A model generated the notes under the pieces. It worked only from the letters and a program-made list of their open reading frames with translations. It searched no databases and had not been told where the DNA came from. Positions 1,335 through 4,118 of a DNA stretch of 4,189 nucleotides are shown here, piece after piece; position 1 is the stretch's first letter; each line of letters opens with the position of its first letter. The DNA lies in the sequence record LC710219.1, one strand, 5' to 3'. The position numbers and the translations under genes are program-made. The DNA is from Escherichia phage Qbeta.

Positions 1335-1736
1335 ATGGCAAAATTAGAGACTGTTACTTTAAGTAACATCGGGAAAGATGGAAAACAAACTCTGGTCCTC
1401 AACCCGCGTGGGGTAAATCCCACTAACGGTGTTGCCGCGCTTTCACAAGCGGGTGCAGTTCCTGCGCTGGAGAAGCGTGTTACCGTTTCGGTATCTCAGC
1501 CTTCTCGCAATCGTAAGAACTACAAGGTCCAGGTTAAAATCCAGAACCCGACCGCTTGTACTGCAAACGGTTCTTGTGACCCATCCGTTACTCGCCAGGC
1601 GTATGCTGACGTGACCTTTTCGTTCACGCAGTATAGTACCGATGAGGAACGAGCTTTTGTTCGTACGGAGCTTATCGCTCTGCTCGCTAGTCCTCTGTTG
1701 ATCGATGCTATCGATCATCTGAATCCAGCGTATTGA
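1335..1736 (+). CDS. Major coat (capsid) protein, 133 aa, ending in a leaky UGA
   Basis: ATG at 1335..1337 gives MAKLETVTLSNIGKDGKQTLVLNPRGVNPTNGVAALSQAGAVPALEKRVTVSVSQ...LNPAY, recognised from memory as Qbeta coat protein; the track ORF 1311..1736 starts at an upstream TTG that is not the real start; stop TGA at 1734..1736. Confidence 0.95.
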   Translation: MAKLETVTLSNIGKDGKQTLVLNPRGVNPTNGVAALSQAGAVPALEKRVTVSVSQPSRNRKNYKVQVKIQNPTACTANGSCDPSVTRQAYADVTFSFTQYSTDEERAFVRTELIALLASPLLIDAIDHLNPAY

Positions 1737-2330
1737 ACACTGCTCATTGCCGGTGGTGGCTCAGGGTCTAAACCCGATCCGGTTATTACTCCTCCGGATC
1801 CACCGATTGATCCGCCGCCAGGGACAGGTAAGTATACCTGTCCTTTCGCAATTTGGTCCCTAGAGGAGGTTTACGAGCCTCCTACTAAGAACCGACCGTG
1901 GCCTATCTATAATGCCACTGAACTCCAGCCTCGCAAATTTGATGTTGCCCTTAAAGATCTTTTGGGCAATACAAAATGGCGCGACTGGGATTCACGGCTT
2001 AGTTATACCACGTTCCGCGGTTGCCGTGGCAACGGTTATATTGACCTTGATGCGACTTATCTTGCTACTGATCAGGCTATGCGTGATCAGAAGTATGATA
2101 TTCGCGAAGGCAAGAAACCTGGTGCTTTCGGTAACATTGAGCGATTCATTTATCTTAAGTCGATAAATGCTTATTGCTCTTTAAGCGATATTGCGGCCTA
2201 TCACGCCGATGGTGTGATAGTTGGCTTTTGGCGCGATCCATCCAGTGGTGGTGCCATACCGTTTGACTTCACTAAGTTTGATAAGACTAAATGTCCTATT
2301 CAAGCCGTGATAGTCGTTCCTCGTGCTTAG
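1335..2330 (+). CDS. A1: A1 read-through minor capsid protein (coat protein plus C-terminal read-through domain), 331 codons including the recoded UGA
   Basis: Frame 0 stays open from 1737 to the TAG at 2328..2330 (my manual translation of 1737..1961 plus track ORF 1962..2330): TLLIAGGGSGSKPDPVITPPDPPIDPPPGTGKYTCPFAIWSLEEVYEPP...CPIQAVIVVPRA, recognised as the Qbeta read-through domain. Followed by a second stop TAA at 2331..2333. Confidence 0.9.
1734..1736 (+). promoter_or_regulatory. Leaky UGA stop codon of the coat gene (programmed read-through / recoding site, decoded as Trp at low frequency)
   Basis: UGA followed by A (UGA-A context) and by 197 in-frame sense codons with no stop until 2328; read-through of the coat UGA is established for Qbeta. 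Confidence 0.88.
1737..1832 (+). other. Gly/Ser-rich then Pro-rich flexible hinge linking the coat domain to the read-through domain of A1
   Basis: Translation TLLIAGGGSGSKPDPVITPPDPPIDPPPGTGK; nucleotide-level near-repeats CCGATCC / CCGGATCC / CCGATTGATCC at 1774..1815. Confidence 0.75.
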
Positions 2331-2344: not shown

Positions 2345-2364
2345 ATGCATGTCTAAGACAGCAT
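2345..2364 (+). promoter_or_regulatory. Coat-protein-binding translational operator hairpin (represses replicase translation; also the packaging recognition element)
   Basis: AUGCAUGUCUAAGACAGCAU folds as an 8-bp stem (2345-2348/2361-2364 and 2350-2353/2357-2360) with a bulged A at 2349 (the A of the replicase AUG) and a 3-nt loop UAA at 2354..2356. This matches the Qbeta operator architecture (3-nt loop, bulged A) known from the literature. Confidence 0.85.
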
Positions 2365-4118
2365 CTTCGCATAACTCTCTTAGCGCACAATTGCGCCGAG
2401 CTGCGAACACAAGAATTGAGGTAGAAGGTAACCTCGCACTTTCCATTGCCAACGATCTACTGCTGGCTTATGGTCAATCGCCATTTAACTCCGAGGCTGA
2501 GTGTATTTCACTCAGTCCGAGATTCGACGGGACCCCGGATGACTTTAGGATAGGTTATCTTAAAGCCGAGATCATGTCGAAGTATGACGATTTCAGCCTA
2601 GGTATTGATACCGAAGCTGCTGCCTGGGAAAAGTTCCTGGCAGCAGAGGCTGAATGTGCTTTAACGAACGCTCGCCTCTATAGGCCTGACTACAGTGAGG
2701 ATTTCAATTTCTCACTGGGCGAGTCATGTATTCACATGGCTCGCAGAAAAATAGTCAAGCTAATAGGAGACGCTCCGTCCGTTGAGGGTATGTTGCGTCA
2801 CTGCCGTTTTTCCGGCGGTGCCACGACAACGAATGACCGTTCGTACGGTCATCCGTCCTTCAAGTTTGCGCTTCCACAAGCGTGTACGCCTCGGGCTTTG
2901 AAGTATGTTTTGGCTCTTAGAGCTTCTACACATTTCGATATCAGGATTTCTGATATTAGCCCTTTTAATAAAGCAGTTACTGTACCTAAGAACAGTAAGA
3001 CTGATCGTTGTATTGCCATTGAACCCGGCTGGAATATGTTTTTCCAACTAGGTATCGGCGGCATCTTACGCGATCGGTTGCGTTGCTGGGGTATCGATCT
3101 GAATGATCAGACGATAAATCAGCGCCGCGCTCACGAAGGCTCCGTTACTGATAATTTAGCAACGGTTGATCTCTCAGCGGCAAGCGATTCTATATCTCTT
3201 GCTCTCTGTGAGCTCCTACTGCCTCCAGGCTGGTTTGAGGTTCTTATGGATCTCAGATCACCTAAAGGGCGGTTGCCTGACGGTAGTGTCGTTACTTATG
3301 AGAAAATATCCTCTATGGGTAACGGGTACACATTCGAGCTTGAGTCGCTTATTTTCGCTTCTCTTGCTCGTTCCGTTTGTGAGATACTGAACTTAGACTC
3401 ATCTGAGGTCACTGTTTACGGAGACGATATTATTTTACCGTCCTGTGCAGTTCCTGCTCTTCAGGAAGTCTTTAAGTATGTTGGTTTTACGACCAATACT
3501 AAAAAGACCTTCTCTGAGGGGCCGTTCAGAGAGTCGTGCGGTAAGCACTACTATTCTGGCGTAGATGTTACTCCCTTTTACATACGTCACCGCATAGTGA
3601 ACCCTACCGATTTAATACTGGTTTTGAATAACCTATATCGGTGGGCCACGATTGATGGTGTATGGGATCCTAGGGCCCATTCCGTGTACCTCAAGTATCG
3701 TAAGTTGCTGCCTAAACAGCTGCAACGTAATACTATACCTGATGGTTACGGCGATGGAGCCCTCGTCGGATCGGTCTTGGTCAATCCCTTCGCGAAAAAC
3801 CGCGGATGGATCCGGTACGTACCGGTGATCATAGACCATACAAGGGACCGAGAGCGCGTCGAATCGGGATCGTATCTCTACGATCTCTTTTCGCGTTGCT
3901 TCTCGGAAAGTAACGACGGGTTGCCTCTAAGGGGTCCGTCGAGTTGCGATTCTGTAAGTCTATTTGCCATAGATCAGCTTATCTGTAGGAGTAATCCTAC
4001 AAAGATAAGTAGATCTACTGGTAAATTCGATATACAGTATATCGCGTGCAGTAGCCGTGTTCTGGCACCCTACGGGGTCTTCCAGGGCACGAAGGTTGCA
4101 TCTCTACACGAGGTGTAA
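2349..4118 (+). CDS. RNA-dependent RNA polymerase (replicase beta subunit), 589 aa
   Basis: Track ORF 2340..4118; true start taken as the second ATG (2349) giving MSKTASSHNSLSAQLRRAANTRIEVEGN...; contains the YGDD catalytic motif; recognised from memory as near-identical to Qbeta replicase; stop TAA at 4116..4118. Confidence 0.95.
   Translation: MSKTASSHNSLSAQLRRAANTRIEVEGNLALSIANDLLLAYGQSPFNSEAECISLSPRFDGTPDDFRIGYLKAEIMSKYDDFSLGIDTEAAAWEKFLAAEAECALTNARLYRPDYSEDFNFSLGESCIHMARRKIVKLIGDAPSVEGMLRHCRFSGGATTTNDRSYGHPSFKFALPQACTPRALKYVLALRASTHFDIRISDISPFNKAVTVPKNSKTDRCIAIEPGWNMFFQLGIGGILRDRLRCWGIDLNDQTINQRRAHEGSVTDNLATVDLSAASDSISLALCELLLPPGWFEVLMDLRSPKGRLPDGSVVTYEKISSMGNGYTFELESLIFASLARSVCEILNLDSSEVTVYGDDIILPSCAVPALQEVFKYVGFTTNTKKTFSEGPFRESCGKHYYSGVDVTPFYIRHRIVNPTDLILVLNNLYRWATIDGVWDPRAHSVYLKYRKLLPKQLQRNTIPDGYGDGALVGSVLVNPFAKNRGWIRYVPVIIDHTRDRERVESGSYLYDLFSRCFSESNDGLPLRGPSSCDSVSLFAIDQLICRSNPTKISRSTGKFDIQYIACSSRVLAPYGVFQGTKVASLHEV
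3417..3428 (+). other. RdRp catalytic motif C (Y-G-D-D) within the replicase
   Basis: TAC GGA GAC GAT in the replicase frame (codons 357-360), in the context VTVYGDDIILPS. Confidence 0.9.

Follow-up and report, generated by a model that had tools for sequence, protein, structure and literature searches.

Read-through of a stop codon that yields a low-abundance, C-terminally extended protein is known from the CP-RTD of plant luteoviruses and poleroviruses and from gag-pol of MuLV, and the luteovirus read-through protein belongs, like the product considered here, to the minor components of the capsid and contributes to transmission in an accessory role. These systems differ from that of Qubevirus in their eukaryotic hosts and in the use of UAG or UGA together with defined downstream stimulatory RNA elements; their extension domains are not homologous to the A1 protein of Qubevirus, and the likeness is confined to the mechanism. 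Of the three stop codons, UGA is the leakiest in Escherichia coli, where it is misread by tRNA-Trp, and an A as the fourth base after UGA constitutes a comparatively weak RF2 context. Among the RNA coliphages, the MS2-type leviviruses (Emesvirus) have a coat of homologous fold (PF01819) and a genome laid out on the same overall plan, but we know of no read-through extension in Emesvirus, in which the coat gene is closed by efficient stops and lysis depends on a separate overlapping gene.

The closest described system is that of phage Qbeta, in which the UGA at the end of the coat gene is read as Trp in ~5% of passages to give A1 (PMC6071253; PMC6526423), an assignment that goes back to Weiner & Weber 1971 as cited in these two papers. 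A1 is present in few copies per capsid and is essential for infectivity, as stated in PMC13114773 with reference to Weiner & Weber 1971 and Hofstetter et al. 1974. As of 2026, its precise function had yet to be established (PMC13114773).

A near-complete genome of a Qbeta-group Qubevirus

The window, by which we mean the whole stretch of 4,189 nt analyzed here (LC710219.1), is a near-complete genome of a Qbeta-group Qubevirus, a Qubevirus durum-like ssRNA coliphage. In a megablast search of the whole window against 50,697 phage records, full-length identity was 96.2% for FrHibiscus, 96.1% for FrBurgundy, 95.8% for FrMerlot, 95.4% for Qbeta HL4-9, and 94.2% for Qbeta Anc(P1), and only ~75% for M11 and MX1; all of these are Qubevirus genomes (Fiersviridae). 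In the records of these relatives the coat CDS is nested in the A1 read-through CDS, with which it has a common start, between the A2 maturation and replicase genes. The window is collinear with them, with A2 at 52–1314, coat at 1335–1736, A1 at 1335–2330, and replicase at 2349–4118. The exact coat protein of LC710219.1, which carries variant residues near its C terminus (Ile in TELIALLA, His in DHLNPAY), has no entry in an index of 153 billion gene positions; since the best identity in the phage collection is 96.2%, we are dealing with an unrecorded strain of a known species.

A few features outside the coat region were noted in passing. Compared with Qbeta AB971354, the window is ~10 nt short at the 5' end (GGGGACCCCC...) and ~25 nt short at the 3' end (...GAUCUGCUUUGCCCUCUCUCCUCCCA). 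At 40–42, four codons 5' of the canonical A2 start at ATG 52, an additional in-frame ATG arises from an A/G polymorphism (UAUAAGAGG vs. UAUGAGAGG) that is common to FrHibiscus, FrBurgundy, HL4-9, TW18, and VK. This ATG lies inside the Shine-Dalgarno region, so the 424-aa A2 ORF that begins with it probably does not use a real start. The mechanically listed replicase ORF begins with ATG 2340, while the homologous annotated start is ATG 2349 (MSKTAS...). This start is spanned by AUGCAUGUCUAAGACAGCAU at 2345–2364, a stretch 12 nt past the tandem stop of A1 that we take to be the Qbeta coat-protein operator hairpin.

For the comparative analyses, the window was aligned with 15 annotated Qubevirus records, giving 16 genomes: 12 of the Qbeta/M11/MX1 type, which together with the window make up a group III set of 13, and three of group IV (SP, FI, and NL95). 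Two uncultivated IMG/VR contigs with a coding sequence for the read-through domain were considered in addition.

The coat frame continues for 197 codons beyond its UGA

The major coat protein gene (1335–1736, + strand, as are all parts of the coat/A1 locus described below) consists of 133 codons and the UGA, is homologous to the coat CDS of the 15 Qubevirus records, and matches Pfam PF01819 (Levivirus coat protein) over the full model length with an E value of 3.4e-61. The initial annotation had placed the end of this ORF at the UGA at 1734–1736, followed by 197 open codons up to a TAG at 2328 and an adjoining TAA, and every one of these coordinates proved exact. The open frame covers 591 nt (1737–2327), and the tandem terminators UAG UAA close it at 2328–2333 (TAG at 2328–2330 and TAA at 2331–2333). 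That such an opening is a genuine property of the sequence was likewise borne out: the probability of 197 stop-free codons at the base composition of the window is 5.4e-5, only 1 in 20,000 shuffles of the 591 nt was free of in-frame stops, and the remaining five frames contain 4 to 22 stops each across the same interval.

The leaky UGA is found in the context GCG UAU UGA ACA, the next base being A, and over GCG UAU UGA ACA CUG CUC the window is identical to Qbeta. The codon before the UGA encodes Tyr (UAU or UAC) in all 16 aligned genomes, while the base after it is A in 13/13 Qbeta/M11/MX1-type genomes and G in SP, FI, and NL95. The A2 gene also ends in UGA-A (1312–1315; UGA AAC), where read-through would lengthen the product by five residues, up to a second in-frame UGA at 1330–1332. 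The tetranucleotide is therefore not unique to the leaky site, and it is better regarded as permissive than as a dedicated signal.

The extension encodes the A1 read-through domain

Similarity of the region 1737–2327 to the A1 domain of Qbeta, which the initial annotation had expected, was readily found. Searched alone, that is, without the coat part, the extension matches the crystallized “A1 protein” (PDB 3RLC/3RLK) with an E value of 2.9e-128 over query residues 11 to 197; the 185 aligned residues differ by two substitutions and one 2-residue Thr-Pro insertion and in no other way. It also matches Pfam PF16814 (Read-through domain) over residues 19 to 196 with an E value of 1e-95 and 319 bits, the cutoff being 27. 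A tblastn search with the extension retrieved 85 phage records, all of them Qubevirus, 84 of which cover at least 80% of the query, and among the matches listed each record aligned as a single unbroken piece. The extension can be divided into a Gly/Pro-rich linker (TLLIAGGGSGSKPDPVITPPDPPIDPPP; 1737–1820, extension residues 1 to 28), whose length differs between strains, and the globular read-through domain represented by 3RLC/3RLK and PF16814 (1821–2327, extension residues 29 to 197).

The locus resembles that of Qbeta A1 in its position between A2 and replicase, in the UAU-UGA-A end of the coat gene, in the in-frame extension, and in the UAG-UAA tandem stop. It differs in having 197 rather than 195 extension codons, in two replacements within the crystallized region (Val to Thr and Glu to Lys), and in the Ile and His variants of the coat; none of the differences from Qbeta touches a genus-invariant residue. 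The closest relatives, FrHibiscus, FrBurgundy, FrMerlot, FrSangria, and HL4-9 (PP430142-5 and FJ483841; 94.6 to 96.2% nucleotide identity), have an annotated A1 and carry linker insertions at the same spot as the window, but their extensions comprise 196 or 198 codons. The group IV phages SP, FI, and NL95 (Qubevirus faecium) possess the coat, the UGA, an in-frame extension of 197 to 199 codons, and a homologous domain, but their extensions are only 39 to 45% identical, the UGA is followed by G, a single UAA takes the place of the TAGTAA found in 13/13 group III genomes, and the RNA hairpins of the linker are not conserved.

An extension of 197 codons was found in none of the 12 other group III genomes, which have 195, 196, or 198, and NL95 alone matches this length in group IV. 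The length results from an insertion of 6 nt (Thr-Pro), as compared with Qbeta, at 1786–1791 in the Pro-rich linker (KPDPVI[TP]PDPPIDPPP), although its exact placement is ambiguous in this repeat-like stretch. The same 2-residue insertion is absent from the other 15 genomes, and an exact search of IMG/VR for the linker 33-mer of the window gave no match. The linker contains two adjacent indel sites at which strains have 0, 3, 6, or 9 extra nucleotides. At the site used by the window, the inserted nucleotides fall in the loop (1783–1793) of a 7-bp hairpin, in which GAUCCGG (1776–1782) pairs with CCGGAUC (1794–1800). Among the window and nine Qbeta-like genomes folded, this loop measures 5, 8, or 11 nt (~13 nt in FrHibiscus), the 11 nt of the window corresponding to the two additional residues. 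M11 and MX1 have a different, shifted hairpin at this site, and the group IV phages have none. Linker insertions of 1 and 3 residues exist in viable isolates. The Thr-Pro insertion is a small variation in a part of the linker that varies anyway, rather than something new; at most, the natural series of 0 to 3 additional residues indicates that insertions are tolerated here.

The extension is under purifying selection throughout Qubevirus

The initial annotation had also called for coding constraint downstream of the UGA in other Qubevirus genomes and for the absence of in-frame stops in homologues, and both were found. The UGA at the end of the coat gene is kept in 16/16 aligned genomes and in both IMG/VR contigs, which share with the window the coat-UGA-extension arrangement and the TAG TAA end, and no in-frame stop other than the UGA occurs in any of these 18 sequences. 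Across the genomes the extension is 195 to 199 codons long and varies by whole codons only; correspondingly, the nucleotide alignment around the UGA contains gaps of 3 and 6 nt only.

For nine relatives whose dS to the window was unsaturated, Nei-Gojobori dN/dS values against the window ranged from 0.08 to 0.25 over the whole extension. The globular part (from GTGKYTCPF on) gave 0.08 to 0.19 and resembles the coat (0.06 to 0.34), while the 28-residue linker, with very few sites, gave 0.2 to 1.7 and is close to neutral. Variable columns are distributed over the three codon positions as 23/14/74 in the Qbeta-like set and as 56/43/127 in group III, with third positions in excess. From Qbeta to NL95, 62 extension residues are invariant, among them those of CPF, CRGNGY, DLDA, GFW, and CP.Q. 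The extension evolves under purifying selection at the protein level. The UGA as the sole stop, the whole-codon indels, the dN/dS values, and the third-position excess together imply that this stretch is translated in the coat frame throughout the genus.

Conserved RNA helices flank the UGA

An alternative that refines, rather than replaces, read-through from codon context is that its efficiency is set in addition by the flanking RNA. The 201 nt around the UGA form a more stable fold than shuffled sequences (z = −3.3), and RNAalifold on 15 genomes, combined with a count of pairs that used slid partners as controls, revealed helices on both sides of the stop codon. One is a hairpin 5' of the UGA (1694–1722; helix 1), with 12 pairs, 3 of them compensatory, and 93.9% of cells paired. 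The other is a domain 19 nt 3' of the UGA (1755–1819; helices 3 and 4), which encloses smaller hairpins and in which GGUGGC at 1755–1760 (the Gly codons of AGGGSG) pairs with GCCGCC at 1814–1819 (the Pro codons of DPPPG), 3 of the 6 pairs being compensatory; the same proportion, 3 of 6, applies to a hairpin nested within the domain. Taken together, the flanking helices have 94% of cells paired, vs. 20 to 50% with the partners slid, and nine compensatory pairs, and their covariation score was matched by none of 500 shuffles, figures that are biased in favor of the structure because the alignment scored here is also the one that produced it. Synonymous variation is mildly reduced (0.44 to 0.50) at 1752–1865, around the domain 3' of the UGA.

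Against a role in tuning read-through, synonymous sites adjoining the UGA show no unusual conservation: 10 of the 11 degenerate codons for invariant amino acids vary between 1695 and 1751. Moreover, the one stem that would hold the UGA in its loop (4 bp, 1727–1730/1741–1744) shows no compensatory change at all. Dense RNA structure runs through the entire Qbeta genome, where it serves replication and the control of translation, and in E. coli tRNA-Trp reads UGA at a basal level with no need of a stimulator. In the literature cited here we found no RNA structure that stimulates read-through in bacteria. We assign the flanking helices to the dense fold of the genomic RNA rather than to a read-through stimulator, and consider it improbable that RNA structure sets the efficiency. 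As a candidate role, one could imagine that the fold formed by 1694–1722, the pairing of 1755–1760 with 1814–1819, and the hairpin at 1776–1800 tunes the ratio of coat to A1; we rate this, too, as quite unlikely. Were it true, selection would act on the length polymorphism of the linker through the RNA in addition to the protein, and the locus would offer a bacterial example of structure-modulated stop-codon read-through.

Read-through is the route into the extension

It might also be supposed that the extension is a separate protein made by internal initiation downstream of the UGA, given that a TTG-started ORF in the same frame (1962–2330) appears in the mechanical ORF list. This TTG is missing in SP, FI, and NL95, and the 75 codons of the window from 1737 to 1961 contain no in-frame ATG, GTG, or TTG; in the genus alignment, no conserved candidate start precedes column 212 (group III) or column 248 (group IV). 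The start-free part nevertheless already holds genus-invariant residues (GTG and CPF) and belongs to the solved domain, the PDB match beginning at extension residue 11. Because no in-frame start lies between the UGA and 1962, the domain is reachable from the coat frame only. The published N-terminal sequence of Qbeta A1 is that of the coat, and the annotated records and the literature agree on a single fused coat-A1 polypeptide. Internal initiation thus appears very improbable.

That the open frame is noncoding, and kept by chance or by the constraints on RNA structure, could draw on the conserved helices with their compensatory changes and on the mild synonymous dip described above, but it is contradicted by the amino-acid-level selection (dN/dS and third-position excess), by the match to a crystallized protein domain, by indels of whole codons only, and by a chance of origin of about 5e-5; with detection of the A1 protein already published for Qbeta, this reading has a negligible probability. 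Bypass of the UGA by selenocysteine insertion, a frameshift pair, or hopping has hardly any claim either, as we found no evidence in its favor, coat and extension share one frame, so that no frameshift is involved, with the UGA as the sole interruption in 18/18 sequences, the literature assigns Trp to this position in Qbeta, and neither a SECIS nor any other recoding element turned up in an Rfam scan.

The Rfam scan, which covered the whole window at a permissive E value, returned only two subthreshold matches to the mir-2574 model. They lie at 1920–1993 on both strands, with 22 to 23 bits against a gathering score of 90 and E values of 0.24 to 0.41, and were rejected as chance matches; their occurrence on both strands points to a roughly palindromic local hairpin at 1920–1993, almost certainly fortuitous.

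Read-through of the coat UGA is accordingly the only route into the extension that the sequence offers.

Synthesis of A1 in the LC710219.1 strain

The interpretation put forward in the initial annotation, namely, that the coat UGA is read through to yield A1, is well supported by domain homology and by the comparative coding constraint, and we hold it to be very nearly certain that this is programmed read-through of the kind known from Qubevirus, with the identity of the inserted amino acid, the ~5% rate, the place in the virion, and the need for infectivity carried over from Qbeta. Ribosomes would initiate at AUG 1335 and translate the coat, and most of them would terminate at the UGA at 1734–1736 to release the major coat protein of 132/133 residues. 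In a minority, a near-cognate tRNA (tRNA-Trp in Qbeta) would decode the UGA, and translation would go on in the same frame for 197 codons to the UAG-UAA at 2328–2333. The resulting A1, of 331 codons in all and about 36 kDa, would consist of the coat, a Trp, the 28-residue Gly/Pro-rich linker, and a globular domain of 169 residues, with an expected junction peptide of ...NPAY-W-TLLIAGGGSGSK. Its coat-like N-terminal part would permit co-assembly into the capsid in few copies, displaying the extra domain.

Insertion of Trp at the UGA of this strain is suggested by the identical context, GCGUAU-UGA-ACACUGCUC. The ~5% rate, the incorporation into virions, and the requirement for infectivity are likewise expected for this strain by homology to Qbeta.

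The read-through in LC710219.1 is the one known from the coat/A1 genes of Qubevirus, in a strain ~96% identical to published isolates. For the annotation of the genome it means that 1335–2330 represents nested coat and A1 genes with translational read-through at 1734–1736. Among bacterial examples of programmed stop-codon suppression, the read-through from coat into A1 is a classic one, and Qbeta display technology is built on it.
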